From Dehalococcoidia bacterium (GTDB lineage Bacteria > Chloroflexota > Dehalococcoidia > Lucifugimonadales > UBA3495): a stretch of DNA of 64,000 nucleotides. How positions within the stretch are numbered: the first letter of the stretch is position 1; every line of letters begins with the position of its first letter. Position numbers and translations under genes: made by a program. Shown one piece after another: positions 16,507-42,249 of this stretch. The notes under the pieces were generated by a model, which saw only the letters and a program-made list of their open reading frames with translations, was not told the origin of the DNA and ran no database searches. The stretch covers positions 1,442,218 to 1,506,217 of the forward strand of contig CBDCFB010000001.1 in the NCBI GenBank assembly GCA_965216065.1, given 5' to 3'.

Positions 16507-17787
16507 ATGGCCAATGTGCGCGCGTTTCGAGGTTGGCGTTACAACCCCGCCATGGTTGAAGACATGGCGGCAGTGCTCTGTCCGCCCTACGACATGATTA
16601 CCCCATTGATTCAGCAGGCGCTGATGGACCGGCACCCCCTGAATGTAATCAACCTGGAGGCGGGCGAGGGCCTGGATTGGGCATCCGATCCGGCGGACCG
16701 TTACAAGGAAACCGCCGGGCGCTTCGAGGAGTGGCTCAAGGAAGGCGTGCTGCAGCAGGACGATGAGCCAGCCTATTACCTGATGCGCCACGGCTTTACG
16801 CTTGGAGGCCAGCAGCGGTCACGTCTGGGTCTGATAGCGTGCGTTGGGATCGAGGATTACGACACACGGCAGGTACTACCCCACGAGTTCACCGAGGCGC
16901 CGGTGGTGCGCGACCGCGTGAAGCTGATGGGATCGGTCTCTGCGAACATCAGCCCCATCATGTCGATCTACAGGGACGCAGACAACGAACTGGCGGCCCT
17001 GTTCGAGCAGGTCATGGCCCAGGATCCCGAGGTGGACGCCAGGGATGAGTTCGGCTCGGATGCCACCATGTGGCGCATTGCGGACCCGGAAAGCGTGACC
17101 GCTATCAGCCGGTTCTTCTCAACCCGGCCGGTATTCCTGGCAGACGGGCATCACCGGTACGAGGCGTCGCGGCACTACCGGATGGCCCGGCAGGCTGAGG
17201 GGGCGGATTCGTCGTCGAGTGCACACAACTATGTGATGATGACGCTGATCGCATTCGACGACCCCGGCCTCGTTGTGCTGCCGTATCATCGCAATCTGAG
17301 CGGCCTGAACGACTGGCAGCTGGCGAGGGTGAAGGAACGGCTGAACGAGGTGTTCGAGACTGAACCTATGGAAGGACGTTCAGCCGAAGAGATCGTGGCG
17401 CTGGTGGAGGAGCGGGGGCGCTCCGGGCGGGTGATGGCCGCGCTGGGGCCCGATGGAGCACAGCTGCTCACGCTGCGCCCATCTGCCATCGGCGACGACT
17501 GGGGCGCGATGGCGGTGTCGGAAGCGTGGGTGCTGGAGGAGAGAATCCTCCGCCCGGAGCTGGGCGAGGCCACATGGCACCACCTGGGTTTCCTGCACGA
17601 CCACGATGAGGCGGCAGAGGGTGTGGCCGATGGGTCGCTGCAGATGGCCTTCCTGATGAAGCCCTTCCCCATGGACGCATTCGAGGACATCGTCGGGCAG
17701 GGGCAGCGGCTGCCGCGAAAGTCCACCTTCTTCTACCCCAAGCTGCCAACGGGGCTGGTCATCAACCGGATAGACGGGGAGATCTAG
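16507..17787 (+). CDS. DUF1015 family protein
   Basis: 426 aa with MANVRAFRGWRYNP... and FLADGHHRYEAS, typical of DUF1015. Confidence 0.75.
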   Translation: MANVRAFRGWRYNPAMVEDMAAVLCPPYDMITPLIQQALMDRHPLNVINLEAGEGLDWASDPADRYKETAGRFEEWLKEGVLQQDDEPAYYLMRHGFTLGGQQRSRLGLIACVGIEDYDTRQVLPHEFTEAPVVRDRVKLMGSVSANISPIMSIYRDADNELAALFEQVMAQDPEVDARDEFGSDATMWRIADPESVTAISRFFSTRPVFLADGHHRYEASRHYRMARQAEGADSSSSAHNYVMMTLIAFDDPGLVVLPYHRNLSGLNDWQLARVKERLNEVFETEPMEGRSAEEIVALVEERGRSGRVMAALGPDGAQLLTLRPSAIGDDWGAMAVSEAWVLEERILRPELGEATWHHLGFLHDHDEAAEGVADGSLQMAFLMKPFPMDAFEDIVGQGQRLPRKSTFFYPKLPTGLVINRIDGEI

Positions 17788-17845
17788 CAGCAGGCGGGAG
17801 ATAGTGTCTGAGTGACAGGCATTCCAGGTGCCTGAGGTGCCAAGT

Positions 17846-18982
17846 ATGACCGGCCTGATTGCAGTTTTGTTCACCTTTGCTTTCATGCTGGGCGCCTGCA
17901 TGGAAGAATCCGGACAGCCTGGCTCCGGCAGCGGAACTCAGACCGTCAAGACTCCCGACGCGGCCGTTACGGGTACGGTCACCTACAGGGAGCGACTGGC
18001 ACTCACCGATGGGGCCAGGCTCATCGTCGAACTGCGAGATGTGTCTCTGGCCGATGCCGCCGCTCCTCTCATCGCCAGCCAGACGATCGAGAACCCGGGA
18101 CAGGTCCCCATCGGGTTCAGGGTCGAATACGATAGCAAAGACATCAACCCTCGAAACACATACTCCGTGAGCGCCCGCATCGTCGAAAGAGACGGGCGGC
18201 TGGCCTTCACCAACGACACGGCCTACGAGGTGATAACACGGGGCAATCCAAGCAGAGTCGACATGCTGCTGGTGCTGGTGCAACCCCCACCGGAAGCGGT
18301 CGAGGAAGGAAAAGACTGGCGCACCTGGGTGGAGACCCCTGCCCGGATTGCCCGGGCGAACCTGATGAGAAGCGAACGGGAACCCCTGATCCGAGTCCAC
18401 TACTACCAGTCTACTATTGAAGGTTGCGCCCGCCGAGGGAACGAGTCCCTGGAATTGGAAGGGACCGACTTCATGGTGAGCGTAACCCTGATTCAGCCGC
18501 CTTCCACACCATGGGCCATTCCCTGCGAGGATGAGGTCGTGGAGTTGGACGCGGTGTTTCCGCTCGAGGAAGCGCTGAAGCCAGGCCAGACTTACCGGGT
18601 CGTCGTCAACGGCTGGCCGTTCGCTGCTTTCACCGTACCCGACGAGGAGTTCCACATCTCCGCCATAGCCGAATCCCACATCCTGCGAGCCGGGGTGGAA
18701 GAGGTGGAGGAGGAACCCGCGAATTATGAACTGACCGTGGTCTCATCAAGGCCTGTCGGGAGCAGTTGCTCCCGCTTCGACGGGTACGAGACGCGCCGGC
18801 AGCAGGACCGCCGGATCGATGTCAGCATCACCCACCACCAGGTCACCGCTTCCGGGATCGCCTGCACCAAGGATGTCCCGTTGGACGAGACCATTGTGCC
18901 CCTGGGGTCCTATTTCGAGGCCGGAGAAGAGTACGAGGTGGTCGTCAATTCGGACACCACAGTGTCATTCCTGGCCCGGTAA
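17846..18982 (+). CDS. lipoprotein with YbaY-like N-terminal domain
   Basis: Signal peptide plus lipobox FMLGAC. The segment VTGTVTYRERLALTDGARLIVELRDVSLADA resembles YbaY. Confidence 0.6.
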   Translation: MTGLIAVLFTFAFMLGACMEESGQPGSGSGTQTVKTPDAAVTGTVTYRERLALTDGARLIVELRDVSLADAAAPLIASQTIENPGQVPIGFRVEYDSKDINPRNTYSVSARIVERDGRLAFTNDTAYEVITRGNPSRVDMLLVLVQPPPEAVEEGKDWRTWVETPARIARANLMRSEREPLIRVHYYQSTIEGCARRGNESLELEGTDFMVSVTLIQPPSTPWAIPCEDEVVELDAVFPLEEALKPGQTYRVVVNGWPFAAFTVPDEEFHISAIAESHILRAGVEEVEEEPANYELTVVSSRPVGSSCSRFDGYETRRQQDRRIDVSITHHQVTASGIACTKDVPLDETIVPLGSYFEAGEEYEVVVNSDTTVSFLAR

Positions 18983-22927: not shown

Positions 22928-23545
22928 CTAGTGCATCGGCGAGAACTTGGCCGGGATCATGATCTTGTTTTCCTGGGAGACGCGGCCGGGGGCGCCGCTG
23001 GGCCACTGGGGGATCTTGCTGGCCTCCGCACGGACTTCGGAGCGGTGATTGAGGCTCTTGTACGGCCAGATGTGCATCCACTTGTTCAGTCCGCCGAACT
23101 CCGTGTGCATCCCGGCGGCAAGGGGCGAGAACTCCTCCCGGTAGGGAATGGATTCGGCCCAGCGGCGCAGCAGTTCGGGGATGGAGCCCGGCTGGTAGGT
23201 GTAGACCCTCATCTCGTAGATGTTGCCCAGTTCCTGGTCTCCTCCCATGGGCCGCATGAAGGGAGCCGGCTGCCAAACCTCGGCGTTCATGTGCAGGATG
23301 TTGCCCGGGGTGATCTTCGGGGGCCAGTTGGCTTCCTTGGCGGCGGCTTCTCGAACCTTCGCCCGCTCTTCCAGGCTCTCGTATCCCCAGACATGAATGA
23401 TCTGGTTCAGCGGCCCGATGTCGGTGTGCCAGAACGCGGCAATGGGCGAATACTTTTCGCGATACGGAAGCGCCTCTGCAAAAGCCTCCTCGGCCTGTTC
23501 AACCGCACCGGGCTTCATGTCGTAAGTCCGAACTTCGTAAATCAT
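22928..23545 (-). CDS. NIPSNAP family protein (two domains)
   Basis: 205 aa made of two halves, each starting YEVRTY / YEMRVY. Confidence 0.8.
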   Translation of the reverse strand: MIYEVRTYDMKPGAVEQAEEAFAEALPYREKYSPIAAFWHTDIGPLNQIIHVWGYESLEERAKVREAAAKEANWPPKITPGNILHMNAEVWQPAPFMRPMGGDQELGNIYEMRVYTYQPGSIPELLRRWAESIPYREEFSPLAAGMHTEFGGLNKWMHIWPYKSLNHRSEVRAEASKIPQWPSGAPGRVSQENKIMIPAKFSPMH

Positions 23546-26589: not shown

Positions 26590-27480
26590 TCACCGGTCGT
26601 CGGTGGGCAGCCGCGTGGCGACGCCACCCATGCCGGGCGGAGGCCAGCTGCCGGTCAGGTAGTCGTACAGGTTGGCGGCGCTGATGCGCATCACCATGGG
26701 AGCCATGCCCTCCTGCTCCACATCCATGGGGTAGCGGTCGGTCATCGCGGTCAGGCTGGGCACTGCCTCTTCCTTAGTCATGCCCCGGTTGATGGCGTCC
26801 TGCACGTAGTCCTTCCAATCGACGATGAACTCGCCCTGCTCGTCTAGGTAGTCCTTGCCGCACAACGCTCCGTGGCCAGGAACGAAAATGTTTTCGTCCA
26901 GCCGGCGCAGCGACTCCAGTGCCACCAGCCACAGGTCGGGGTCAGCCTCGTGGAGCCAGGTTTGCACGCCATGGAATATGTTGTCGCTGGTGAAGACGAC
27001 ACCTTCCTCCTTGATCACCACCGCCGCTTGGTACAGGGTGTGTCCGGGCATGTGTATCATCTCGAAGGTGTGGTCGCCGACGCGCAAGGTCATCTCGTCT
27101 TGGAAGGTGATGACCGGCGGATTGGCCCGGTAGCCCTCCAGCAACGCAGGCTCCTCCGGGCCGAAGGTGCACACGCGCGCGGCGTGCTCAGCCATGTCGG
27201 TGTTCAGAATGCGGGTCCGCACCCCCTCGTGGGCGATGACCGGCGCGTCGAAGAAGGCATTACCGGTCCAGTGGTCGCCATGGGGCTCGGTGTTGATGAT
27301 GTAGCGTAGTCCTGGGCCGGTCGAAGGGCTGCGCTTCTCGATCTCGGCCTTCAGCCACATGGCGGTGCTGGGCTTGTGGGGACTGTCGATCATTACTACG
27401 CCGTCGGAGGTGGTGACGAACCCGAAGTTGCAGCCGCGGACCTCGGTTTCCACCCATACGTTGCTGGTCAATTGCTTCAT
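26590..27480 (-). CDS. MBL-fold metallo-hydrolase
   Basis: ORF trimmed to ATG 27480 (MKQLTSNVWVE...). Metal motifs EPHGDHW and HMPGHT. Confidence 0.8.
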   Translation of the reverse strand: MKQLTSNVWVETEVRGCNFGFVTTSDGVVMIDSPHKPSTAMWLKAEIEKRSPSTGPGLRYIINTEPHGDHWTGNAFFDAPVIAHEGVRTRILNTDMAEHAARVCTFGPEEPALLEGYRANPPVITFQDEMTLRVGDHTFEMIHMPGHTLYQAAVVIKEEGVVFTSDNIFHGVQTWLHEADPDLWLVALESLRRLDENIFVPGHGALCGKDYLDEQGEFIVDWKDYVQDAINRGMTKEEAVPSLTAMTDRYPMDVEQEGMAPMVMRISAANLYDYLTGSWPPPGMGGVATRLPTDDR

Positions 27481-27482
27481 TC

Positions 27483-28073
27483 GTGGCCTCCCTGTATGCC
27501 TGGACTGGCATTTGCCGGGCATTCTACACGGTTGACCCCGGTGACGGACGAGCCCTATGCTGGAGTGCGAAATTTCTGGATTGCGAAGTCGGGCGCCGCG
27601 GGGAAGCAGTGGACAATCTCGACCTGGACCTGCATGGCAAGACCTGGGCCGAGGCCCTTCGGGAGTTCGTTGACGCCTACAACAGGGCGGTCCAGCCGGG
27701 CGGCCATGCCTGCCGGACGCTGACGGTCATCCATGGCTACGGTTCCACGGGAAGCGGCGGGGTTCTACGAACGCGTTTTCGCAGGTTCCTGGAGAGGCAC
27801 GGCTCCCGCCTGGAATTCACGCCCGGAGAGAAGGTCAGCCTCAATCCCGGGTACACGCTGGTAACTCCGAAGTACCCCTTGCCCGGTGCGGATGCCGCGC
27901 TCTGCGAGCTGGTCTGGGACTACTGCGAGCAGCCGAAGACCCTCAGCAAGATCGTGGGGCAGTTCCGGCGGTTTGGAAACCCCCAGGTCCAGCAGGCCGT
28001 CCGGTCGCTTGAGGGGCAGAAGAGGCTCCGGAAGACGGTCAAGGCCAGGAACAGCCTCTACCAGGCGGTTTAG
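27483..28073 (+). CDS. Smr-domain protein (start uncertain; GTG 27609 possible)
   Basis: LDLHGKTWAEA...LTVIHGYGSTG is an Smr signature. The C-terminal part is winged-helix-like. Confidence 0.65.
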   Translation: MASLYAWTGICRAFYTVDPGDGRALCWSAKFLDCEVGRRGEAVDNLDLDLHGKTWAEALREFVDAYNRAVQPGGHACRTLTVIHGYGSTGSGGVLRTRFRRFLERHGSRLEFTPGEKVSLNPGYTLVTPKYPLPGADAALCELVWDYCEQPKTLSKIVGQFRRFGNPQVQQAVRSLEGQKRLRKTVKARNSLYQAV

Positions 28074-28100
28074 AGCCAGGCGGTTTAGAGTAGGAATGAG

Positions 28101-28140
28101 CCTTCAATCCTCCTCTCCCCTGAGGGGGGAAGATTGGAGG
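28101..28140. repeat. GEG-type hairpin repeat variant
   Basis: CCTTCAATCCTCCTCTCCCCTGAGGGGGGAAGATTGGAGG. Confidence 0.6.
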
Positions 28141-28164
28141 GCGGTGAAGTCCTTGGTATCAACG

Positions 28165-28430
28165 CAGGGTAATCGCGTCTGGAAGGCTGGAATCTCATTT
28201 TGCTGTCATTTGCTCCTTGCCAAGCTTGGCGCTCCTTCTCAAACATTAGTTCTATATGTATAACGGATGGCAAACAGAACCCGACTGACATCCCTGTGGG
28301 TCTCTTGAAACAGCGGCCAGCCCGGAATGTCCAGAAATGACCGGGAAAACGAAAAAATCAGCCCCTGCAAACCGGCAATGTCGGCTCATCCGACCCAACC
28401 TGCTGAGTTGCTGAATTCAAGACGCGATTG
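28165..28430. mobile_element. element with type-B termini but unrelated AT-richer core
   Basis: The left end CAGGGTAATCGCGTCT and right end AGACGCGATTG are inverted. TCCTTGGTATCAACG is directly repeated on both sides (28150..28164 and 28431..28445). Confidence 0.5.
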
Positions 28431-28533
28431 TCCTTGGTATCAACGGCCAACCCAATCGATGAAGCCCACCCCTGATATAATTTCGCCAGGATACGGACTT
28501 GGACTTCGGACCCGGACTCCTTGGAGGTCTTAC

Positions 28534-29028
28534 ATGGGAGAAATGCTGCAACAGGGGGGTCGTTTCCCCCAACTGGAACTGAACCTGCTGGACGGCGGCA
28601 AGCTGACCCTGCCGGAAGACGCCCCCAGCCGCTACACGGCTTTGCTGTTCTACCGGGGACACTGGTGACCCTACTGCCAGCGGCAGTTAGCCGCGTACGA
28701 GGCAGCCAAGGCAGAGCTTGATGCGCTGGAAGTCAGCGTCTACGCCGTCAGCGTCGACGATGAGGAGCACGCGAGAGAGGTGCAGGGCAAAGGCCTGTCC
28801 TTCCCTGTTGCCTACGGGGCGACCAAGGCCGACGCCGACGCCATCGGGGCCTGGTGGTCTGACGATAGGGGCGGTTACGTGCAGCCCGCCGAGTTCCTGC
28901 TGAGTCGTGGCGGTGTGGTCGCAGGGGCAATGTACGCCTCCGGACCTGTGGGCCGCATGGGCGCCGACGAGGTCATTCGCTTCATCCAGTTCCGCGAGAA
29001 CCGCCGGCGCCAGGAAGAAGGCGAATAA
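28534..29028 (+). CDS. candidate selenoprotein: peroxiredoxin-like (PRX_like2 / AhpC-TSA) with W-U-P-Y-C, TGA 28666..28668 read as Sec
   Basis: GGAGG RBS 6 nt before ATG 28534. ORFs 28327..28668 and 28780..29028 are in the same frame, separated only by one TGA. Sequence reads ...ALLFYRGHW-U-PYCQRQLAAYE..., where homologues have WCPYC. Confidence 0.7.
28674..28705 (+). promoter_or_regulatory. SECIS-like two-tier stem-loop 3' of the in-frame TGA
   Basis: Lower stem CUGCC/GGCAG (28674..28678 / 28701..28705). Upper stem GCGGC/GCCGC (28680..28684 / 28690..28694). Apical loop AGUUA begins 17 nt after the UGA. Confidence 0.5.
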
Positions 29029-29030
29029 TA

Positions 29031-29101
29031 TCCCCTGCCCCTCAGGGGGAGGGTTAGCACAAAATCCCCTCTCCCTGTGGGAGAGGGTCAGGGTGAGGGC
29101 G
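29031..29101. repeat. two GEG-type hairpin repeats
   Basis: TCCCCTGCCCCTCAGGGGGAGGGTTAG and TCCCCTCTCCCTGTGGGAGAGGGTCAGGGTGAGGGCG. Confidence 0.75.
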
Positions 29102-29111
29102 AACCCCAACT

Positions 29112-29936
29112 ATGAACGAGACCAACCAGCAACTGGTAGACATGATGGAGAGCGTCTGGCGCTCCATCGGCGAGTTGTGCGACGGGCTGACCGAGGCCGA
29201 GTGGAAGACACCCACCGATTGTCCCGGGTGGTCGGTACAGGACCAGGTATCGCACCTGGCTGGCTCGGAGACCGGCATCCTGGGCGATACTGACCCCGAC
29301 CACGCCCCCAGCGAAGAGGTGCTGGCCCACACCCGCAGCGAGCAGGGACGCCACAACGAGATCGTCGTGGACTTCCTGCGCCCCTGGGCCGGGGCGCAGG
29401 TGTTGTCGGACTTCCGGGCCAAGACCGCCCGCCGCATGGAGTTCCTCCACGGGCGGAGCGACGACGATTTTGCGGCCGAGATGCAGACCCCCGTGGGGCC
29501 AGCCCCCATGGCCGAGTTCATCAGCATCCGCATAATGGACGCCTGGGTGCATGAGCAGGACATCCGGCGTGCCCTGGATCGGCCGGGGCACTACGACAGC
29601 CCGGCGGCGGCCCATGCACTGAATCGCATCATCCGCGCCATGCCCTTTGTCGCCGCCCGTCGCGCCCAGGCCCCCGACGGCGCCACGGTCGTGATAGACG
29701 TTGCGGGTCCGGCAGGCCGGCGTGTTTCCATTGGTGTCGAGGGCGGAAGAGGCCGGGAGCTGGATGAAGCGCCGGAAACCCCCACGGTTCAAATCAGCCT
29801 GGAAGCGGAGACCTTCGGCTGTCTGGGCTGCGGTCGCTGGGACCCCGGCGAAGTGCTCCAGTCCGGGAGGGTGTCCATCGAAGGAGACGCCGCCCTGGGC
29901 GAGGCCATTGTCCGGCAGATGAACATTATGCCCTGA
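29112..29936 (+). CDS. DinB/MDMPI-family (maleylpyruvate isomerase N-terminal-like) protein with SCP2-like C-terminus
   Basis: 274 aa with WKTPTDCPGWSVQDQVSHL, typical of the mycothiol-dependent maleylpyruvate isomerase-like family. Confidence 0.7.
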   Translation: MNETNQQLVDMMESVWRSIGELCDGLTEAEWKTPTDCPGWSVQDQVSHLAGSETGILGDTDPDHAPSEEVLAHTRSEQGRHNEIVVDFLRPWAGAQVLSDFRAKTARRMEFLHGRSDDDFAAEMQTPVGPAPMAEFISIRIMDAWVHEQDIRRALDRPGHYDSPAAAHALNRIIRAMPFVAARRAQAPDGATVVIDVAGPAGRRVSIGVEGGRGRELDEAPETPTVQISLEAETFGCLGCGRWDPGEVLQSGRVSIEGDAALGEAIVRQMNIMP

Positions 29937-29954
29937 GGGCACCCAGCCGTATTG

Positions 29955-30187
29955 CTGCACTGAGAAAATCTCTCGAAACTCGTTTGCCCCACAAGCCGTC
30001 GTTCCTGCGAAAGAACTTCGCCCCCGGCTCGATCGGGGAGCGGGAATCCGCGGCTTCCGTCCTTCTGACCGCCCTTAACCGCCAGGGCTGATTAGGCCTC
30101 ATCCGGCAACCGTCAGGCCTAATTTTCGGCCACTGGATTCCCGGCTATGCGGGAATGACGGGTTGATTTCGCTGCATAACTGTCCTG
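29955..30187. repeat. REP/type-B-related repeat cluster (approximate bounds)
   Basis: CTCGATCGGGGAGCGGGAATCC and GGATTCCCGGCTATGCGGGAATGACGG hairpins. The right end ...CATAACTGTCCTG resembles a type-B terminus. Confidence 0.5.
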
Positions 30188-30332
30188 CAGTCCAAATGCG
30201 TTTGCCTTGGATCTGGCCCGGTGCCCCATTGCTCTGCAGCCGAACATTGCGAGGCTATCGGAGCCTTAGCATTAGTGCTATCATTCCATGTTGAAATACA
30301 ATTGTAACAAAATCATCATGAGTTGAGAAAGA

Positions 30333-31781
30333 ATGTTGCGAAGGCGGACCGGCCCTCAGTCGCCCCTTAACCCGGACGCCGGGCTTCAAGCCCGGGGGCT
30401 GGCGGCGCGGCTCCCCTTCCACTACAGCTGGATAGTCATCGCCATCCTGGCGACGGTGCAGATCTTCGCCAGCTCCATCAGCATGGCTGCCGGCATAATG
30501 CTGCCCCCGTTGACCGACCCCGACGGCGCCTTTGGCTGGAACGAAGGCCTGGTAACCCTGGGCATAGCGGCGTATTACGGGTTCGGCGCCCTCTACGCGC
30601 CAATCACTGGCTGGATGGGCGACCGCTTCGGGGCCCGGCTCATGCTGCTGGGTGCTGCAATAATGTACTTGGTCAGCATGATCCTGCTCAGCCAGGTGCA
30701 GGAAGTCTGGCAGTTCTTCCTCTTCTTCGGCGTCCTGCTCTCCCTGACGCAGTCCCTTGGCATGGTGCCCCTGATGGCCTCCGTGAGCGGCTGGTTCCGG
30801 AGACGCCTGGGGATGGGAATCGGTATCCTTTGGGCCGCTGGCGGCATTGGCACCGCGGCCTTCGCCCCCCTCGCCGGGTGGCTTATCGAAACGGTGGGGT
30901 GGCAGGGCAACTTCCTGATCATAGGACTGATCGGCGGGGTAGCGATGCTTTGCCTCGTACCCCTGATGAAGAACCGGCCTGCCGACCTGGGAATCGAGCC
31001 CTACGGCGCCAGGCCCGGGGACTCGACGCAGGCGAGGCTGGCCAAAAGCATGGAGCGCCTGCGGATCAAGACCTTCAACCAGCATATCCGCAAGACCCGT
31101 CCATTCTGGAACCTGCCGCTGATCCATGGCCTGGGATGCGCGGGGCACGGGATCATACTCATCTATGTCGCGAAGTACGCCCTTGACACCGGCGTGTTTA
31201 GCTCCCTTGCTGGGGCGGGCATCATCCTGGCGATCATCTCCCTGGTCAGCATCATCAGCCGTTTCGGCACGCCGGTGCTGGCGGAGATATACGGAACTCG
31301 ACGGATGATGGCCGTGAGCCTGTTGGTACAGGGTCTCACGGTGCCGATCATAATGTTCGGGCCTGCGGAGCCTTGGCTGTTCTACCTGTTTGCCGTCACC
31401 TTTGGAGTGGGATTCGGCGGGGAGTGGACCGGATACCTGATCATCAACCGCCAGTATTACGGCGACGGCCCGATGGGCACGATCTACGGCTGGCAGACAA
31501 CCGGCGCGCTGATGGGGCACTTCGTGGCCACCGCCCTGGCGGGGCTGATCATGTACACCACCGGCTCATACATGGCAGTTCTCGGACTGTCCATGGCATA
31601 CAGCCTGGGTGGTGTGGTGGTGATTTCCCTGCTGGATAGCAACTCCCATGTGCTGATACCGGACTGGGAGAGCGAACTGCCCGACGAAGCTAGGGTGAGA
31701 CCGCGTGCGCCCATACCGTCGGCGCCCCCGCCGTTGGTGGCCCCGCTCCCGGCTCCGGTCGGCGCGGGCGGCGACAGCTGA
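30333..31781 (+). CDS. MFS transporter
   Basis: 482 aa, multi-TM. The minus-strand ORF 30255..31520 is its shadow. Confidence 0.8.
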   Translation: MLRRRTGPQSPLNPDAGLQARGLAARLPFHYSWIVIAILATVQIFASSISMAAGIMLPPLTDPDGAFGWNEGLVTLGIAAYYGFGALYAPITGWMGDRFGARLMLLGAAIMYLVSMILLSQVQEVWQFFLFFGVLLSLTQSLGMVPLMASVSGWFRRRLGMGIGILWAAGGIGTAAFAPLAGWLIETVGWQGNFLIIGLIGGVAMLCLVPLMKNRPADLGIEPYGARPGDSTQARLAKSMERLRIKTFNQHIRKTRPFWNLPLIHGLGCAGHGIILIYVAKYALDTGVFSSLAGAGIILAIISLVSIISRFGTPVLAEIYGTRRMMAVSLLVQGLTVPIIMFGPAEPWLFYLFAVTFGVGFGGEWTGYLIINRQYYGDGPMGTIYGWQTTGALMGHFVATALAGLIMYTTGSYMAVLGLSMAYSLGGVVVISLLDSNSHVLIPDWESELPDEARVRPRAPIPSAPPPLVAPLPAPVGAGGDS

Positions 31782-32570: not shown

Positions 32571-34049
32571 CTATTCGTCCTCGAGGAACTCCCGGACGAA
32601 GGCGGTGGCCGGTTCCTTGTCGTACAGGCTGTTCAGCAGGACGATGTTGCGGTAGGCGTCGCCCTGGAAGAAGCGCTCGTAGAGAATCTGCCGCTGGCCG
32701 AAGGCGCTGCAGCAGGTGTCCCACGCCAGCCGGAACAGGCGTATGCGGTCCTCCGCCGTGGCGGTGTCGGTGTCGAGATAGCCGGCCAGTTCTTCGGACA
32801 TCGGGCCTTTCAGATCGGCCTCCGTCGGGAGGGCCATCAGGCTGCTGGAGCCCATGAGCTGCAGGATCTCTCCCATGCGCGGGTACATCCTGATGAACAG
32901 GTGCCGGGCCACCATCAGCGGCATCTCCGCTGGACACATCACGCCCCATTCGTCGGGGGCGGCTTCGGCTTCGGCGGCACGGAGCAGAGCCTTGGTGGTC
33001 TCCAGGTTCTCGATGATTTCCGCCGTCATCTGAAGCATCTGGGGCTGCTGGCCTGAGCCGAGGACCTGCTGCATCAGGTTGGCCAAGCCCAGGACGAACT
33101 CCACCTTGACCACATTCTTGGTCACCACCTGGTGGCCGGAGTGCAGGTACTGGTGGGTGTGTCGGGACATATTGTTGCACCGGTCGGGGTCGCCCAGGAG
33201 GAACACCCGCTCCCAGGGAACGAACACGTTGTCGAAGAACGCCAGTGCATCCATTTCCTCGAAGCGCGAGCCCAGCGGATGATCGAACCTGGAGCGACCC
33301 AGGTCGAAGCTCTCACGGCACAGGAACTTCAGTCCAGGCGCGTCGCAGGGCAGCGCGAACGCAAATGAGGTGCGACCCGGGGCTCCGGTAGGCAGACGGT
33401 GCGACCGGGCCGGGTAGACCGCGATCTCGTCGGCAATGGGCAGGGTGGCAAGCAGCCTGGCGCCGTGGACGATGATCCCGGAATCTGTCTCCTTGACCAC
33501 GGAGAGAGCAATGTCGGTGTTGTCGTGGAGGATCTGTTCCGTGGGGACCCGGCTGCGCTGGAGGTTGACCAGGGTGTGGGTCAGGACAAGGTCTTCCTCG
33601 CGCACCTTCTCGTAGTAGTTCCAGATGTTCTGCTTGAACTCCGGGCGGTCCTCGGCAAAGTAGTCCCCGGCGTTGGCCATTGCCATCAGGCTGACATTCA
33701 GGAAGTCGGGCGTCCGGCCCATCATCCCGCAGGATACCTGGGCCCACCGGCGCATCATCCCCCGCCGGGCATCCAGATCAGCGGTGCTCCTGGGAGTGAT
33801 GAAGGACAGACCCACCTGCTCGCCGGTGGTGGGCGACGCATAGGTCATCTCGGGGCCCACGGCCCCCGGGTTTAACTGGCGCTGCGCTGCCGAAGGGTGC
33901 TGGAGGTCGTACAGGCGGGCCACCGTCTTGACGCCTCCACTCAGCCCGGGGTGCGTGGTCGGGTCGTCGATGCGCTCACCTCGCATGTACAAGGCCGGCG
34001 GGCGCTCGCGAAGCCTCTGGATGTACTGCTGCCCGTTCCTGGCGCCCAT
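32571..34049 (-). CDS. 4-hydroxyphenylacetate 3-monooxygenase oxygenase-component (HpaB) family protein
   Basis: 492 aa with MGARNGQQYIQRLRERPPALYMRGERIDD..., an HpaB/4-hydroxybutyryl-CoA dehydratase family layout. Confidence 0.8.
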   Translation of the reverse strand: MGARNGQQYIQRLRERPPALYMRGERIDDPTTHPGLSGGVKTVARLYDLQHPSAAQRQLNPGAVGPEMTYASPTTGEQVGLSFITPRSTADLDARRGMMRRWAQVSCGMMGRTPDFLNVSLMAMANAGDYFAEDRPEFKQNIWNYYEKVREEDLVLTHTLVNLQRSRVPTEQILHDNTDIALSVVKETDSGIIVHGARLLATLPIADEIAVYPARSHRLPTGAPGRTSFAFALPCDAPGLKFLCRESFDLGRSRFDHPLGSRFEEMDALAFFDNVFVPWERVFLLGDPDRCNNMSRHTHQYLHSGHQVVTKNVVKVEFVLGLANLMQQVLGSGQQPQMLQMTAEIIENLETTKALLRAAEAEAAPDEWGVMCPAEMPLMVARHLFIRMYPRMGEILQLMGSSSLMALPTEADLKGPMSEELAGYLDTDTATAEDRIRLFRLAWDTCCSAFGQRQILYERFFQGDAYRNIVLLNSLYDKEPATAFVREFLEDE

Positions 34050-34152
34050 GACTAGTCCTCCTCTGTCGTTTCCCCTTACTATTTTGGCTTACTATTTTGG
34101 CCGAAGACCCTCGGATTTTACAGTGCGTCTCTCAGTGCGTCTCTCCCGGAGG

Positions 34153-34276
34153 CAGGGTCTTTTAGTTTTCTATGGGAACCTTGCGAATCCGTTCGTGGTG
34201 AGTTCGTCGAACCATGAACGGACGGCCCTTCGACGGGCTCAGGACCAACGGATTTGTCGACAACTAAAAGATCCTG
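34153..34276. mobile_element. MITE-like element type A' (LSNH core), 124 bp
   Basis: Ends are CAGGGTCTTTTAGT... and ...ACTAAAAGATCCTG. Flanked by perfect CTCCCGGAGG at 34143..34152 and 34277..34286. Confidence 0.8.
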
Positions 34277-34286
34277 CTCCCGGAGG

Positions 34287-34481
34287 CAGGGCAATCGCGT
34301 CTTAACATTCGGCACACTAATCGGGCAGGCATGGCTGCAAAAATTCCCGTTATCCCTGCGAATGCAGGAATCCAGAGGTCAGTTGCCAGTGAATCACGAC
34401 TTGCCTCGAGGCCCTTGGAATCCCGCTTTCGCGGGAATGACGGATTATGGGGCCCTCAGCATTTGGGACGCGATGGTCCTG
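34287..34481. mobile_element. MITE-like element type B, 195 bp
   Basis: Ends are CAGGGCAATCGCGTC... and ...GACGCGATGGTCCTG, with REP hairpins inside. Flanked by CTCCCGGAGG at 34277..34286 and 34482..34491. Confidence 0.8.
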
Positions 34482-34755
34482 CTCCCGGAGGCCCCGGCGC
34501 TGTCGGGAATTCCGGCTGTGTGTGGGCCCTGGATTTCTGCAGGGCTACCGGGCTTTTGCCGTCGTCCGTTCCGGCCAGTCGCAAGCTGAATCTACTTGAC
34601 ACTCCCAGAGGGTTGTGATAATTTTCACTCGATTTTTGGCCCGCCACCCGACTAGCGGGATTTCGGGCCGCTAATTTTGTCAGGAACCGGTCGACAGGCA
34701 GGCCGGGACAAATCGGCACCGCTCCGGTTTACTCAGGGCAGGATGACGGCAGTCC

Positions 34756-35046
34756 ATGGACCCCAAAGCGTTAAACAGCACCGACTGGCAAAACATCCAC
34801 CTCTTCCTTCAGTGGTTCTGGATTTATTTCCCACTGGTTGTTGTATTTGCTATCACCATGCTCACTGCTCACGCGCTCATTCCGTCGGCTGTGTCGACGG
34901 GCCACCTGCCCCAAAGCGTCGCCCGGCTCAAGTGGCCTCTCACCGGTTTTGCCCTGGTCATTGCCGCGGTCGCGATCGTAATCCTGGTTCTGGGAATCAA
35001 TCAGACCCTTGACGTGAGGAATTTCTGGAACCGGCTGCTTATCTAA
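34756..35046 (+). CDS. small membrane protein (2 predicted TM helices)
   Basis: 96 aa with hydrophobic stretches FLQWFWIYFPLVVVFAITMLTA and GFALVIAAVAIVILVLGI. Lies upstream of actA. Confidence 0.5.
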   Translation: MDPKALNSTDWQNIHLFLQWFWIYFPLVVVFAITMLTAHALIPSAVSTGHLPQSVARLKWPLTGFALVIAAVAIVILVLGINQTLDVRNFWNRLLI

Positions 35047-35151
35047 CTGCTTATTTAGGCAGACCGGTTTCTACTGCGCCCCTCCCTCCCTCAGAAGGCT
35101 GTCCGGTGGTGGTGGTGCCAGGCATTTCAACATGAACGGTTCCAATCAAGA

Positions 35152-35793
35152 ATGAGACCTTCTTCCAAAATGATCCCGCTCATGGTGGCGGGGGGCATTT
35201 TCACCGTCATTGTCGGCTTCGTGGTGGTTGTGTTGTTCATTTCCTGGTTCTCCAACCCTCCATTCGGCTTGGGAAATGCTTCGGCGCAACCCATCGTTTT
35301 CCCTCACACGGTCCACGTGGAAGAGAACAACATTCAGTGCGAGTTCTGCCACAGGAACGTGACCAAGGGTGATGCGGCAACGGTTCCGGCGGTGGAGCAG
35401 TGCCTGTTTTGCCACAAGGACATCTCCGGGCGGGACAGCCAGGCCGAGACAGAAATCGCCAAGGTCCAGCAGTACTTCGCCGATGAAGAGCCCATCGACT
35501 GGGAGCGCGTGCATCGCCTTCCCGATCACGTCCGCTTCGTGCATGAGGCACACATCCGCTTCTTCACCAGCGATGCCGGGACGGGAGGAGCCAGCGGCCA
35601 GCGCTTCGACATCAACGGCAAGGAAATCAGCGGATCACTGGGCATCACCCAGACCTGCGCCATCTGCCACGGCGATGTCGGCGGCATGAGGGAAGTCCAG
35701 CCGCAGGAAGGACAGTCCCTGAAGATGGGTACCTGCTTGGACTGCCACAGGGTCAACAATGTCCCGACCGACTGCACTGTATGTCATAAGTAA
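35152..35793 (+). CDS. actA: Alternative Complex III subunit ActA (pentahaem cytochrome c, N-terminal TM anchor)
   Basis: Five CxxCH motifs: CEFCH, CLFCH, CAICH, CLDCH, CTVCH. Position is directly before actB. Confidence 0.8.
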   Translation: MRPSSKMIPLMVAGGIFTVIVGFVVVVLFISWFSNPPFGLGNASAQPIVFPHTVHVEENNIQCEFCHRNVTKGDAATVPAVEQCLFCHKDISGRDSQAETEIAKVQQYFADEEPIDWERVHRLPDHVRFVHEAHIRFFTSDAGTGGASGQRFDINGKEISGSLGITQTCAICHGDVGGMREVQPQEGQSLKMGTCLDCHRVNNVPTDCTVCHK

Positions 35794-35887
35794 GAAAGGA
35801 ATGAAGGACTGATTGCCGCCCAGGCGGTATTTGCAAAGCAACTCTGCCAATTTGAAGTTAGTTTGAACGCAGCGAAGAATCTCATCG

Positions 35888-38215
35888 ATGAAATTATCTA
35901 GGCGACATTTTCTGGCTTGGGCCGGTCTCAGCGCGGTTGGCGCCGTGGCCTGTGAGGGCTTCGGCATCCGCGAAGGCGAACTCAATATCCAGAGTCCGGT
36001 GAGCCTTCCTGAGGACCTTGTGCGGGGCAAGGACAACTGGTACGCCAGCCTTTGCCGCAACTGCCCATCCTGCGAAGGGATCCTGGTTCGCGTGATGGAA
36101 GGCAGGGCGAAGAAGGTCCAGGGGAACCCTCTTTATCCCACCAACCAGGGAAAGAGCCACGCCCGATGCGAGGCCGGCGTTCAGGCGCTGTACCATCCCG
36201 ACCGCATTCCCGGCGCCATGAGGCGCGGCGGCAACCGCGGGTCGGGGCAGTTCGACCCCATCGGCTGGGATTCGGAGGGCATGGAGGCCTTGGTCCGCCA
36301 GATCAATGACCGCGGCTCCCGCGCGGTGCTTCTGACCAAGCCGACCCGGGGGCATCTGGGGCTTCTGACCTCCCGGTTCGCACAGGCCGTGGGCGCCGAG
36401 CACATGAGCTACGAGGCGGTGGACAACAATGTGTACCGCACCGCCGTCAAGAATGTTTACGATCAGGATGTTCTCCCCGACTTCGACATGGAGAACGCCA
36501 ACTTCATCCTCTCCTTCGGCGCCGACTTCCTGTCCACTTGGATTTCGCCGACCCGCTGGAATCGCGGTTACGGGGAATTTCGCCAGGGAGAGGGACGGAG
36601 CAATCGAGGTACCCTCTACCAGGTTGACTCCCGCTTCTCCATGACTGCGGCCAATGCCGACAAGTGGATTCCGATCCGGCCGGGATCCGAGGGGCTCCTG
36701 GCCCTGAGCATCGCACAGGTCATCATCGAAGAGAATCTGCAGGCCCGTGGCGTAGATGTAGATGCCCTCTTGGGCGGAGACACCGGCCGGACCTTGCTGA
36801 ACAATTACCGCCCCGAGGATGTGGTGAACCGGATAGGCCTCACGCCTGAAATCGGCGGAGGAGATCCTGCTGCCTTCATCCGGAAGATCGCCCGCGATTT
36901 CGCCGGACACGGACCCAGCATCGCCATCGCCGGCGGTTCGGCAGGGGCCCACAGCAACGGGCTCTTCAATGTGGAGGCCGCCACCGTACTGAACTGGCTC
37001 GTGGGCAGCGTGGGTGTTGAGGGGGGCGTACGCCTCAATCCCTCCGGCCCGTGGCAGGATGTCCCGTCATCGGCGAGCAGCGCCAGTCTGGACGACATGG
37101 AGCGGCTCACAAGCAAGATCCGGTCCGGCGAGACCCGGATGCTCATGGTGCACAATGTGGACCCGGTCCATGGTCTCCCGGGGTCTCTGGACCTTGCGGA
37201 TGCGATTGTCAGTGCCCAGGACCTGTATGTTGTAAGCTTCTCTCCGTTTATCGACGACACCACAGCGCTCGCCGATCTGCTTCTCCCCGACCGGGTGTAC
37301 CTGGAGGACTGGGGCGACGACATTCCAGACCCCGCTCCCGGGTACCAGGTGGCGGGATTCCAGCAGCCGGTGGTCAACCCGTTGTGGGATCTGGACCCGC
37401 GCAGCTTCCCGGATGTGCTGCTGGCCGCGGCTGACGGAGCCGGCGTGGGAGACCAGCTGCCCTGGGCCAGCTACCAGGCGATGCTGAAGGACAGTGCAAC
37501 CGCCCTGTTCGAGGGGAACCGGGGATCGATAGACGCAGGAACCGCCGACGAATTCTGGACCACCCTGCTGCGTCGCGGGGGGTGGTGGGACGAGTCGGTA
37601 ACCGGTCCCGATGTGCCGAGCCCTCGCCCGGGCCTGTTGCGTAGAATTTTGGAGAGTGCCTCGGCACCCACTTTTGCCGGTTACGGCGGGGAAGGCACCC
37701 TCTACCTGGCACCCTTCTCGCATAATACCTTGCAGGATGGGGATCTCGCCCACCTGCCGTGGCTCCAAGCCACTCCGGATCCGGTGACTTCCGTAACCTG
37801 GCAGACCTGGGTGGAACTGAACGACATCACTGCGGAGCGCCGCGGAATCCGCGAGGGGGATGTGGTGCGAATCGAGTCCGCGAGGGGCTCCATACGCGGA
37901 GTGGCCTACCTCAACCCGGCGACACCGCCCGAGGTCGTGGGCGTCCCATTCGGCGGAGGCCGCCGGCATGGGTCGCCGTACGCCACTGACCGGCCAGCCA
38001 GCGAGAGCTCCAACATTACCGACATCCTCGAACCGACGCGTGTGGCCGGCCCCGGCTCCCTTGCCTGGGCGGGTACCCGCGTTCGCATCTCTCCAACCGG
38101 CGAGAGCGTCAACGTCTCCAAGCTCGAGGGCAATGTCCGGTCGGTGGAGGTCGGGCTCAGCGCCGCCGAGGAAATCATCAAGACCGTCGCTCCCGGCAAT
38201 TACGGCAATTACTAG
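35888..38215 (+). CDS. actB1: ACIII ActB1 (molybdopterin-oxidoreductase-like domain, Tat signal)
   Basis: Tat motif SRRHFLAWAGLSAVGAVA. N-terminal Cys cluster CRNCPSCEG...C. 775 aa. Confidence 0.8.
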   Translation: MKLSRRHFLAWAGLSAVGAVACEGFGIREGELNIQSPVSLPEDLVRGKDNWYASLCRNCPSCEGILVRVMEGRAKKVQGNPLYPTNQGKSHARCEAGVQALYHPDRIPGAMRRGGNRGSGQFDPIGWDSEGMEALVRQINDRGSRAVLLTKPTRGHLGLLTSRFAQAVGAEHMSYEAVDNNVYRTAVKNVYDQDVLPDFDMENANFILSFGADFLSTWISPTRWNRGYGEFRQGEGRSNRGTLYQVDSRFSMTAANADKWIPIRPGSEGLLALSIAQVIIEENLQARGVDVDALLGGDTGRTLLNNYRPEDVVNRIGLTPEIGGGDPAAFIRKIARDFAGHGPSIAIAGGSAGAHSNGLFNVEAATVLNWLVGSVGVEGGVRLNPSGPWQDVPSSASSASLDDMERLTSKIRSGETRMLMVHNVDPVHGLPGSLDLADAIVSAQDLYVVSFSPFIDDTTALADLLLPDRVYLEDWGDDIPDPAPGYQVAGFQQPVVNPLWDLDPRSFPDVLLAAADGAGVGDQLPWASYQAMLKDSATALFEGNRGSIDAGTADEFWTTLLRRGGWWDESVTGPDVPSPRPGLLRRILESASAPTFAGYGGEGTLYLAPFSHNTLQDGDLAHLPWLQATPDPVTSVTWQTWVELNDITAERRGIREGDVVRIESARGSIRGVAYLNPATPPEVVGVPFGGGRRHGSPYATDRPASESSNITDILEPTRVAGPGSLAWAGTRVRISPTGESVNVSKLEGNVRSVEVGLSAAEEIIKTVAPGNYGNY

Positions 38216-38227
38216 GATCGATCTCCG

Positions 38228-38266
38228 AGTCAGGGACCCGGGTCAGGGACCAAAGTCAGAGACCCG
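38228..38266. repeat. 13-bp imperfect tandem repeat x3 in the actB1-actB2 spacer
   Basis: The three units are AGTCAGGGACCCG, GGTCAGGGACCAA and AGTCAGAGACCCG. Confidence 0.85.
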
Positions 38267-38287
38267 AGCCAGAGAACAGGCGCATAG

Positions 38288-39199
38288 ATGGTAACGAACC
38301 GAATCGATCACAAGTGGGGCATGGTTGTAGACCTGGACCGGTGTACCGGTTGCCAGGCCTGTGTCGTGGCCTGCCAGGCAGAGAACAACCTGCCCATCAA
38401 TACCAAGGACTATTTCCAGCAGCGGCGGGCCTACGAATGGATTCGCATCGAACGCTATTGGGAAGGCGAGTTCCCCAACGTCAAGGCTCGTTTCATCCCC
38501 ATCATGTGCCAGCACTGCGAGAATGCGCCGTGTGAGCCCGTGTGCCCGGTGTTTGCCACCTACCACAACGACGAGGGCCTGAACGTCCAGGTCTACAATC
38601 GTTGCGTCGGCACCCGCTACTGCGCCAACAACTGCCCCTACCAGGTGCGTTTCTTCAACTGGTGGGAGCCCAAGTGGCCGGAACGCCTGCGCAATCAGCT
38701 CAACCCCGATGTTACTGTGCGCAGCCGGGGCGTCATGGAGCGCTGCTCGTTCTGCGTGCAGCGGATACGCCGGGGAGAAATCACCGTCGAACGAAGGGGC
38801 GTTGAGCCGCTTACTGGCGAATCCATACCGTACGCCGAACCTGCCACTCCGAGCCAGGGCCGCTACCTGAACTACCAGCGCATGAAGGAAGGGAACTTCC
38901 TGCCCGCCTGCGCCCAGGCCTGTCCCACCAACGCCCTGATGTTTGGGGAACAGACCGACCAGACCGGCCCGGTCTACAAGTACTTTGAAAAGGCCAACGA
39001 GCAGTATGACAAGGTGCACCACGGCGAATACGTTGACGAGTCCAAGACCCGGGTGTACAGGCTTCTGGAAGAGATGGCCACGAAGCCGAACGTGATCTAC
39101 CTGAAGAAGGTCGAAGAGGGAGCCGGCGAGGCTCACCAGCCAATGGCTATGAATCCTGCCAATCCAAGTCCCAATCCAAGTCAGGCACGGGCGAAGTAA
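38288..39199 (+). CDS. actB2: ACIII ActB2 (4Fe-4S ferredoxin-type iron-sulfur subunit)
   Basis: CTGCQACVVAC, CQHCENAPCEPVCP, CVGTRYCANNCP, CAQACP cluster motifs. Confidence 0.85.
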   Translation: MVTNRIDHKWGMVVDLDRCTGCQACVVACQAENNLPINTKDYFQQRRAYEWIRIERYWEGEFPNVKARFIPIMCQHCENAPCEPVCPVFATYHNDEGLNVQVYNRCVGTRYCANNCPYQVRFFNWWEPKWPERLRNQLNPDVTVRSRGVMERCSFCVQRIRRGEITVERRGVEPLTGESIPYAEPATPSQGRYLNYQRMKEGNFLPACAQACPTNALMFGEQTDQTGPVYKYFEKANEQYDKVHHGEYVDESKTRVYRLLEEMATKPNVIYLKKVEEGAGEAHQPMAMNPANPSPNPSQARAK

Positions 39200-39203
39200 C
39201 TCA

Positions 39204-40685
39204 ATGGCAGCCAGCGAAAGCGAACATCTTCATCACGGCGTAGCCCATGGCGAGGGCCACGGAGGGGTTTCCGGGGGGCACTACCCCGGAATGTGGGTCT
39301 TTCCCAATCCCCGTGTTATGACCCGTGACATGGCGGAGAAAATCGCCGCCATGCCGCGCATGTTCACCCTGGGGCTGCTGCTGACATTCGCTCTCCTGGT
39401 GCTGGGCGTCGTGGGCTTCGTGGCCCGTGCTTCAGCCGACGGCTTCGACGACCGGGCGCCATGGGGCTACTACATGGCGACCTTCTCCTTCGTCTTCATG
39501 GTCACCAGCGCAGCTCCCGTGGCTGCGGTGGCCTTCCGATTTACCAAGAGCCACTGGCGGCGGCCCCTTTCGCGGGTGTCCGAGCTCTTCGCCGTAGTGG
39601 GCATCTTCAACATCATCACCTTCATCCCGATGATGCTGATATTCCCTCCGATTCTCAATCCGAACCCGGTTCAGGGCCATGACCTAGAGATCCGCCGCAC
39701 CATCTGGTTCGAAGGACCTATCGGTGCCCCCCACGCCTGGGATCTCGCGGGCGTGGTTGGACTGGCGGTAACATCCCTATTCATTCTGTACATCTCTGCG
39801 GTGCCCGACATGGCCGAGGCGCTTTCGTTAAAAGGGGGACGGGCCGCGACGGGTTTCCGTGGCTGGTTCTACCGGACCCTGGCCGGGCATTGGTACGGCA
39901 CCAAGCGGCAGTGGAACGCCCAGAAGGCGGGCCTGGCAATGTTGGGCGCCTTCTACTTCATGATCCTGATCTTCGTACACTTCATCATCAGCTCCGACTA
40001 CGCGCAGAGCATGATCCCGGGATGGAAAGACTCGATCTTCCCGGTGTTTTACAGCCTGACCGCATTCCAGGTCGCCCTGGGTACCTGTCTCATGATCCTG
40101 TACGTGATGCGGCGCTGGGGAGGCTTCCAGGAATATTACGGCAAGTCGGTCTTCTGGTCGGCCAGCAAGGTGCAGCTGGGTCTGACGCTTCTGTGGGCCT
40201 ACCACCTCTTTGCTTTTTTCATCACCTACTGGTTCGGCCGGCTGGTGGTGGAGCAGAACATCATCAAGTACCTGTTTGCCCAGTCATACGGGGGAGTCTT
40301 CGTGGCGAACCTGGCGCTGAGCTTCGTGATCCCGTTCCTGCTGCTCCTCTGGAACCCGGTACGGCGCAGCGCCTGGGGTCCGCCCCTGGCGGGTCTGTCG
40401 GCAGCGCTGGGTGCGCTGATGTTCAGCGTGCGCGTGTTCGTGGGCGGTGCCAACTCCGGCAACATATATGAGGCCTTTCTGAATCACGTCCCCGCGGCAG
40501 CCTACCCCGATATCTGGGACATATTCATGGTCATCGGGGGAATCGGAGGGGCCGCGTTCACCTACCTGGTTGCGACCAAGATTTTCCCCCTCCTGTCGGT
40601 CTGGGAAGTGAAGGAAGGCGCGCTATACCAGAGTATGCGGCGCTTTATCAGGGGCGAATACCTGGTGCTGGCCAAGCCCGAATAA
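39204..40685 (+). CDS. NrfD/PsrC-family integral membrane subunit (divergent ActC/ActF-type) with His-rich N-terminus
   Basis: 493 aa, multi-TM. N-terminus is ESEHLHHGVAHGEGHGGVSGGH. The start lies 5 nt after the actB2 stop. Confidence 0.7.
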   Translation: MAASESEHLHHGVAHGEGHGGVSGGHYPGMWVFPNPRVMTRDMAEKIAAMPRMFTLGLLLTFALLVLGVVGFVARASADGFDDRAPWGYYMATFSFVFMVTSAAPVAAVAFRFTKSHWRRPLSRVSELFAVVGIFNIITFIPMMLIFPPILNPNPVQGHDLEIRRTIWFEGPIGAPHAWDLAGVVGLAVTSLFILYISAVPDMAEALSLKGGRAATGFRGWFYRTLAGHWYGTKRQWNAQKAGLAMLGAFYFMILIFVHFIISSDYAQSMIPGWKDSIFPVFYSLTAFQVALGTCLMILYVMRRWGGFQEYYGKSVFWSASKVQLGLTLLWAYHLFAFFITYWFGRLVVEQNIIKYLFAQSYGGVFVANLALSFVIPFLLLLWNPVRRSAWGPPLAGLSAALGALMFSVRVFVGGANSGNIYEAFLNHVPAAAYPDIWDIFMVIGGIGGAAFTYLVATKIFPLLSVWEVKEGALYQSMRRFIRGEYLVLAKPE

Positions 40686-40693
40686 GATCATCC

Positions 40694-40788: not shown

Positions 40789-40804
40789 AAAGACTAGAGG
40801 AATA

Positions 40805-42202
<1,398 letters not shown>

Positions 42203-42249
42203 CCCGGTCTGTCCCGCCCGAGCGGAGACACGAACAGAGGAAACGGAAC

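Follow-up and report, generated by a model that had tools for sequence, protein, structure and literature searches.

Does an in-frame TGA in a Dehalococcoidia genome end a short peptide, or does it encode selenocysteine (Sec) in the middle of a longer protein? The question arises at positions 28534–29028 of a 64,000-nucleotide stretch of contig CBDCFB010000001.1 (assembly GCA_965216065.1), hereafter the window, where an earlier reading of the sequence alone had proposed a peroxiredoxin-like (Prx-like) selenoprotein with the active-site motif W-C-P-Y-C written as W-TGA-P-Y-C. We conclude that the region is very probably one gene, encoding a cytoplasmic 164-residue thiol/selenol oxidoreductase of peroxiredoxin fold with a UGA-encoded Sec. 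The gene belongs to an already known kind of selenoprotein, Prx-like UxxC, all of whose defining features are present; orthology to the Geobacter reference WP_010940744.1 is not claimed.

One reading frame and a peroxiredoxin fold

The listed open reading frames (ORFs) at 28327–28668 and 28780–29028 share one frame, and translation bears out the earlier observation that only the TGA at 28666–28668 parts them. From the ATG at 28534 the frame runs through 44 residues to the TGA and then through 119 residues to a TAA at 29026–29028, with no further stop, and the residues flanking the interruption read F-Y-R-G-H-W-(TGA)-P-Y-C. The ribosome-binding site that had been noted upstream of the ATG is indeed present, and most of the 37 listed Chloroflexota orthologues likewise carry a GGAG-type motif at this distance from their ATG. 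The product has no signal peptide. The features of the locus are as follows.

28523–28527, + strand: Shine-Dalgarno motif GGAGG, 6 nt 5′ of the ATG, read directly
28534–29028, + strand: very probable Prx-like selenoprotein gene, 164 codons with Sec at codon 45, plus a TAA stop
28666–28668, + strand: in-frame UGA, predicted Sec at residue 45; TGA in 57 of 59 species-representative loci
28675–28677, + strand: Cys48 codon TGC, putative resolving partner in UxxC; aligned with the peroxidatic Cys of peroxiredoxins and invariant in all homologues
28674–28705, + strand: predicted Sec insertion sequence (SECIS) element within the coding sequence, from fold energy, covariation and loss in Cys forms
28674–28678 / 28701–28705, + strand: SECIS lower stem CUGCC/GGCAG, 71% paired overall
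28680–28684 / 28690–28694, + strand: SECIS upper stem GCGGC/GCCGC, 88% paired over 55 sequences
28685–28689, + strand: SECIS apical loop AGUUA, its first base the 17th nt after the UGA

Selection acts on both halves. Among 37 Chloroflexota copies, the pairwise differences per site at first, second and third codon positions were 0.20, 0.12 and 0.44 over the 44 codons before the TGA, and 0.21, 0.23 and 0.46 over 57 codons after it, and this third-position bias on both sides indicates purifying selection in one frame on both halves. The same gene, TGA included, is present in identical form in independent long-read and short-read assemblies, and of 4825 bases compared between the window and the long-read contig (ERZ26694896:ctg118028; 4,089,298 bp, ~4.09 Mb), 2 are different. 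In both copies, annotation cuts the gene into products of 44 and 82 residues.

When the stop was replaced by Cys, the joined protein matched the Pfam family AhpC-TSA (PF00578) with a score of 69.3 bits (cut-off 26; E = 3.6e-19). The alignment extends over residues 8–130, or profile positions 2–122 of 124, and is unbroken across codon 45; full-length Cys homologues span 90–99% of the query, so the continuous alignment across the TGA that the proposal implied was found. The Redoxin profile was matched as well. An AlphaFold model of the Cys homologue P0028, which is 60% identical, was obtained at high confidence (predicted local distance difference test score, pLDDT, 91.5; predicted template modelling score, pTM, 0.87), and the solved structures closest to it are peroxiredoxins of the Bcp/PrxQ and Prx6 types, with template modelling (TM) scores of 0.75–0.83 (0.82 for the Bcp/PrxQ type).

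The active site was mapped using phmmer alignments to the solved peroxiredoxins 6q5v and 5xbs. In these alignments the peroxidatic Cys is matched by Cys48, the Thr of PxxxTxxC by Sec45, the Pro by Arg41 and the catalytic Arg by Gln117. The protein shares its fold with the canonical peroxiredoxins (Bcp/PrxQ, Prx6 and AhpC; the TM scores above are those to Bcp4, AhpC2 and ApPrx) and has Cys48 at the peroxidatic place, but three of the four catalytic residues differ (Pro to Arg41, Thr to Sec45, Arg to Gln117) and only C48 is retained. R41, Q117 and P118 are invariant across the Prx-like family homologues. On the strength of this residue mapping, the active site is a thioredoxin-like UxxC on a peroxiredoxin scaffold rather than a canonical peroxidase site. 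The sequence-only reading had placed the stop at the "peroxidatic or first CxxC cysteine", of which the second description holds and the first does not. The arrangement resembles that of the CDD family PRX_like2 (cd02970), named in the sequence-only reading, in which the second Cys of a CXXC corresponds to the peroxidatic one and the rest of the triad is missing; we take this as a likeness only.

Two other selenoprotein families of the same or a similar fold were considered and rejected. PrxU (NF040737) scored 23.8 bits against a cut-off of 270, and the Sec described here lies three residues upstream of the Sec of its TxxU motif. SelL-related redox protein (NF040769) gave the best NCBIfam score, 25.8 bits against a cut-off of 120, over residues 11–82 only; SelL-related proteins and eukaryotic SelL (UxxU, Prx-like2) have a peroxiredoxin-like fold with a CxxC, UxxC or UxxU motif at the same place, but the Prx-like protein, falling below the cut-off, is not a member.

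The family to which the gene does belong has been known since 2005. It was called "Prx-like protein" in the Sargasso Sea study, was counted as "Prx-like thiol:disulfide oxidoreductase" among sequenced genomes (PMC1794560) and as "Prx-like 1" (pfam00578, UxxC), with 225 members, in the Global Ocean Sampling data (PMC2398784), and a 2026 review grades it "predicted with high confidence" (PMC13188914). Our gene and this family have in common the PF00578 domain, many CxxC Cys homologues, a bacterial SECIS directly downstream of the UGA, and a lack of biochemical characterisation. They differ in that the W-U-P-Y-C clade described here consists mainly of Dehalococcoidia and aerobic-type Proteobacteria, whereas the first description concerned deltaproteobacterial anaerobes (PMC1794560), and in that the Sec form of the clade far outnumbers the Cys form.

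Conservation of the UGA and its alternation with cysteine

A search of 5.8 billion proteins returned 686 homologues, among which the closest relatives (75–95% identity) were mostly fragments of 98–120 aa; more than 90 clusters of close relatives are stored as fragments of ~100–120 aa. The 12 fragments that were read begin shortly after the TGA, either as "MAAYEAAK...", from a Leu codon six codons downstream, or later as "MDVSVY...", which means that in many genomes gene callers meet a stop at this position. More distant full-length homologues (at least 18 in the database) have W-C-P-Y-C at the TGA column. The first Cys of this motif, invariant in the Cys forms, is the residue that the TGA replaces, just as had been supposed; the in-frame UGA opens a UxxC motif that aligns with the CxxC of the Cys homologues, and both sides of it are conserved as one protein.

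An orthologue scan limited to one genome per species yielded 59 loci, which were translated in frame. TGA stands at exactly codon 45 in 57 of them, at protein identities of 42–90%. Thirty-nine of these are Chloroflexota, mostly Dehalococcoidia and including SAR202 (58–90% identity), and 18 are Proteobacteria (42–53%), including Pseudomonadales, Burkholderiales, Reyranella and the isolate Enhydrobacter aerosaccus ATCC 27094. The remaining two loci, both from Thermomicrobiales, have TGC at this codon. Taken with the Cys found in further homologues, these counts substantiate the anticipated alternation of Cys and Sec among orthologues. Some Cys forms stand beside the Sec clade and others in a separate clade, and two of them, P0004 and P0028, have Sec forms as their nearest relatives. 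The frame 3′ of the TGA is intact in all loci except one, L046 (3001–3469; OZ253464.1), in which the TGA and the SECIS hairpin are kept and the frame is lost after about codon 88, either because the copy is decaying or because of a long-read indel error.

The consequences for public annotation are systematic, as gene calls routinely split or mistranslate this gene. Three JGI products (P0001–P0003) carry Trp at the Sec position (WWTYC, WWPYC). The DNA of P0001, the only one of the three checked at this level, has TGA at the position labelled Trp (L082, 462–956), so that the public record gives the wrong catalytic residue for this protein. On the contig of the Cys form P0052 (L083, 4181–4912), a 41-aa product with AhpC-TSA matches is followed after ~80 nt by a 174-aa product with no Pfam match, which looks like another split call, possibly of a different Sec-containing peroxiredoxin. 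The present gene adds a member to a selenoprotein family that has long been predicted and never characterised, and shows it to be widespread in Dehalococcoidia of many assemblies, where almost every member has the Sec form.

A Sec-form-specific hairpin downstream of the UGA

The sequence-only reading had described a two-tier stem-loop, with an AGUUA loop starting 17 nt after the UGA, as lying within the range of bacterial SECIS elements. All of its coordinates were recovered, and folding of the 48 nt from the UGA makes it the core of the minimum-free-energy structure (−15.2 kcal/mol; pair probabilities >0.96); the upper hairpin alone has −9.7 kcal/mol. The published bacterial SECIS model (PMC13188914, Fig. 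2) specifies a loop of 3–9 nt on an upper stem of 4–16 bp, a G as the first or second base of the loop, with G or U as the usual next base, a distance of 16–37 nt from the UGA to the apical loop, and an energy of −7.5 kcal/mol or lower. The hairpin falls within all four constraints, with a 5-nt loop on a 5-bp stem, a loop G followed by U, a spacing of 16 nt (28669–28684) and sufficient energy. Because the alignment of orthologues is gapless, the spacing is the same in all of them. The element resembles the SECIS of E. coli fdhF in being a hairpin just after the UGA and within the ORF, with G then U in a small apical loop and a spacing in the 16–37 nt range; it differs in its short conserved core of 5–6 bp, its 5-nt AGUUR loop and its minimum spacing of 16 nt.

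The 48 nt from the UGA were aligned for 55 distinct Sec-form sequences without gaps, with columns 15–19 pairing with columns 25–29. Pairs 16–28, 17–27 and 19–25 are invariant despite including synonymous third positions, while pair 15–29 is GC in 32 sequences, CG in 15, UA in 5 and unpaired in 3, and pair 18–26 is GC in 45, GU in 2 and UA in 1. The proteobacterial copies have an additional pair, 14–30, which extends their stem to 6 bp. The covariation score and double-change count of the upper stem were reached by 0 of 500 column shuffles and lie far above those of all slid registers. The loop is equally constrained: its second base is G in 55/55 sequences, the next is U in at least 90%, and the fourth is an invariant U. 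For the Leu of the loop, 57 of 59 Sec forms use TTA or TTG, codons that account for 0.8% and 8.5%, respectively, of Leu codons in the genes of the window. The lower stem is kept mainly in close Dehalococcoidia relatives.

The strongest control for a Sec-specific hairpin is provided by the Cys forms. Sec forms (n = 59) retain a mean of 4.8 of the 5 upper-stem pairs, with a mean energy of −9.5 kcal/mol, compared with 2.7 of 5 pairs and −3.4 kcal/mol in Cys forms with TGC or TGT at codon 45 (n = 6). The residues R-Q-L-A are nonetheless kept in five of the six. In P0004, for example, C-Q-R-Q-L-A-A is written CAA AGG CAG CTC GCG GCG, where the Sec form has CAG CGG CAG TTR GCC, and the hairpin is destroyed. 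Sec and Cys forms thus amount to a clean natural experiment, in which the same amino acids are written in different codons and the hairpin accompanies only the UGA. Such a contrast could be used to train or validate bacterial SECIS models at the end of their range where stems are short and spacing is minimal. We see the value of the locus in this contrast for a minimal SECIS and in the correction of annotation, not in new biology.

A competing hairpin, CUGCC-AGC-GGCAG (columns 9–13/17–21), was also considered. It is 92% paired; its covariation does not go beyond that of shuffles and it can form in Cys forms as well, and for these two reasons we attribute it to the amino-acid sequence. RNAalifold recovered only four upper-stem pairs, and Rfam gave no SECIS or other meaningful match, either in the whole window at gathering thresholds or in 28600–28780 at E ≤ 10.

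Decoding of the UGA, rival explanations and genomic context

By analogy with the established bacterial pathway, codon 45 would be decoded as Sec. The hairpin at 28680–28694, 16 nt downstream of the UGA, would act as a bacterial SECIS and recruit SelB-GTP-Sec-tRNA(Sec) while the UGA is in the A site, such that Sec is inserted in place of chain termination by release factor 2. In the folded protein, U45-x-x-C48 would sit at the N-terminus of the first helix, as a thioredoxin-like motif, with Sec45 the likely attacking nucleophile and Cys48 the resolving residue, and the catalytic cycle may pass through a selenenylsulfide. Peroxides, protein disulfides and low-molecular-weight thiol conjugates are candidate substrates. 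Like the substrate and the insertion of Sec, a Sec machinery in the host is inferred.

What the window says of the host's decoding is consistent with this scheme. Its 53 likely genes end in TGA in 18 cases, TAG in 26 and TAA in 9, which excludes a genome-wide reassignment of UGA. A motif-based scan for in-frame TGAs gave about 100 matches, mostly in spurious high-GC frames, and after filtering by codon-position GC the only credible ones were those at 28666 and 5552, both in U-x-x-C motifs of redox-type proteins. The latter belongs to the following feature.

5298–5639, − strand: second probable selenoprotein gene, 113 codons, TGA at 5552–5550, motif U-A-G-C

The existence of a second recoding candidate at a UxxC motif had been pointed out before and is upheld. 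Its product reads MEINLSQSAAEHIQGKGGRIAVDLLQHSS-U-AGCAVEV... and, at 42.2 bits, passes the curated cut-off of 40 for the NCBIfam model NF041239, "CC/Se motif family (seleno)protein". Its hairpin has an apical loop GGUC 23 nt after the UGA and an energy of −21.1 kcal/mol, with a z-score of only −1.1; GGUC is the loop of fdhF, and is absent from the Prx-like hairpin. This candidate supports a Sec-decoding host. BSepDB, whose entries come from species with a Sec pathway, includes in its top ten Dehalococcoidia bacterium UBA1141, with 49 selenoprotein genes, and isolate 10f4566d, with 46 (PMC13326102), and it is to these that our orthologues L035 and L033, respectively, belong. The 46 genes of isolate 10f4566d lie on a 2.40-Mb chromosome, roughly one per 50 kb, a density at which two selenoprotein genes in a 64-kb window are unremarkable.

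Several observations weigh against a Sec-containing product. The 71-nt single-sequence fold of 28660–28730 is no more stable than shuffled sequences (z = 0.21) and prefers the competing CUGCC-AGC-GGCAG pairing described above, the SECIS hairpin is small, its spacing is the shortest that the SECIS model allows, and the lower stem is not conserved outside Dehalococcoidia. The Prx-like protein scored below the cut-off of every NCBIfam model, so that its exact subfamily lacks curation. Among 37 window proteins scanned against NCBIfam there was no selA, selB or selD, and ARAGORN detected no tRNA, and hence no tRNA-Sec, in the 64 kb. As evidence against chance, we regard the comparative data (the TGA at codon 45 in 57 of 59 loci and the upper-stem covariation) as decisive and single-sequence folding as uninformative.

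Were the TGA a lesion, that is, a TGC or TGT Cys codon changed by nonsense mutation or base-call error, the gene would be dead or mis-assembled. Gene callers do split it into products of 44 and 82 aa, and the frameshift in L046 shows that decay or long-read indels occur at the locus, but the same TGA recurs with intact frames in 57 of 59 species representatives from two phyla, and these orthologous TGAs come from ENA, NCBI, JGI and isolate genomes rather than from one assembly pipeline. Together with the identity of the gene in independent long-read and short-read assemblies, the coding-type substitution pattern of the 44 upstream codons, and a Sec-form-specific hairpin kept by synonymous-site selection, this leaves the chance of a pseudogene or sequencing error negligible. 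It is also extremely improbable that the UGA is a genuine terminator, giving a 44-residue peptide and a separate or untranslated ORF downstream, with the hairpin serving, for example, attenuation or mRNA stability. Database calls do treat the downstream part as a gene of its own, with TTG or GTG starts, but no start codon follows directly after the TGA in the window, where the "MAAYE" start of relatives is TTA. Neither half alone would be a thioredoxin fold, because the CxxC motif and strand β1 are separated from the rest; moreover, both halves are under purifying selection in one frame, and the Cys-form homologues are single uninterrupted proteins.

A further alternative is that the UGA is translated, but not as Sec, through near-cognate read-through with Trp or Cys, SelB-like delivery of Cys, or local or global reassignment of UGA. 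Systems that insert Cys at SECIS-directed UGA codons have been proposed for some uncultured bacteria, the JGI pipeline wrote W in some metagenomic copies, and Sec machinery of the host was not seen in the 64 kb covered. Against this, TGA terminates 18 of the 53 likely genes, and the only two in-frame TGAs of the window with coding-like flanks each open a U-x-x-C motif in a redox-type protein. In the DNA examined, Cys codons but never a TGG Trp codon take the place of the TGA, the hairpin agrees with the model of a SelB-type SECIS, and related genomes are documented Sec decoders (PMC13326102). A paper on alternative decoding (PMC5424206) contains nothing bearing on the Prx-like gene. We therefore consider a residue other than Sec very unlikely, and retain the reading of a single gene with Sec at residue 45.

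Downstream of the Prx-like gene lies the following neighbour.

29112–29936, + strand: DinB/MDMPI-like gene, matching NCBIfam TIGR03083 (123.9 bits, cut-off 50), a maleylpyruvate isomerase family of mycothiol-dependent enzymes

Of the 39 Chloroflexota loci, 34 have a DinB-like gene directly after the Prx-like gene; no proteobacterial locus has this pairing, nor does L081, the one Cys-form locus checked. Gene order in Dehalococcoidia (window 26590–31781; L001–L037) is kept more widely: a metallo-beta-lactamase-fold gene (−), an Smr-domain gene (+), the Sec-containing Prx-like gene (+), the TIGR03083 DinB/MDMPI-like gene (+) and a major facilitator superfamily transporter (+). Since the pairing occurs only with synteny of the whole neighbourhood and is lacking in Proteobacteria and L081, a functional coupling of the two genes is speculation. 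With that in mind, one could imagine the W-U-P-Y-C clade as a distinct, almost always Sec-containing, non-peroxidase subfamily that has spread between Chloroflexota and Proteobacteria with a minimal AGUUR SECIS and that, in Dehalococcoidia, might partner the DinB/MDMPI-like enzyme, for instance by supplying a selenol-based reductase to a pathway for detoxification or thiol conjugates in those members of the class that are aerobic and rich in selenoproteins; we offer this as a tentative and, on balance, unlikely proposal.

Between the two genes, 29030–29100 contains the G/C-rich palindromes CCCCTGCCCCTCAGGGG and CCCTCTCCC-TGT-GGGAGAGGG, followed by TCAGGGTGAGGGCG. Similar sequence follows the orthologue stop codons in L003, L006, L009 and L017. 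The palindromes may be a dispersed repeat of the repetitive extragenic palindromic (REP) or miniature inverted-repeat transposable element (MITE) type, or a terminator; terminator-like matches in this interval were on the minus strand only.

Elsewhere in the window, ORFs of 426, 384, 205, 493 and 424 aa (16507–18982, 22928–23545, 39204–40685, 46634–47908) have good coding statistics and no NCBIfam match at E ≤ 1e-12 or 1e-15. The region 32571–46002 encodes an HpaB 4-hydroxyphenylacetate 3-monooxygenase oxygenase component (523 bits), Qrc/ACIII-like multihaem and molybdopterin-like subunits, and a CcmF/NrfE haem lyase. From such aerobic-type functions, the host seems to be an aerobic or facultative member of the Dehalococcoidia rather than an organohalide-respiring anaerobe.

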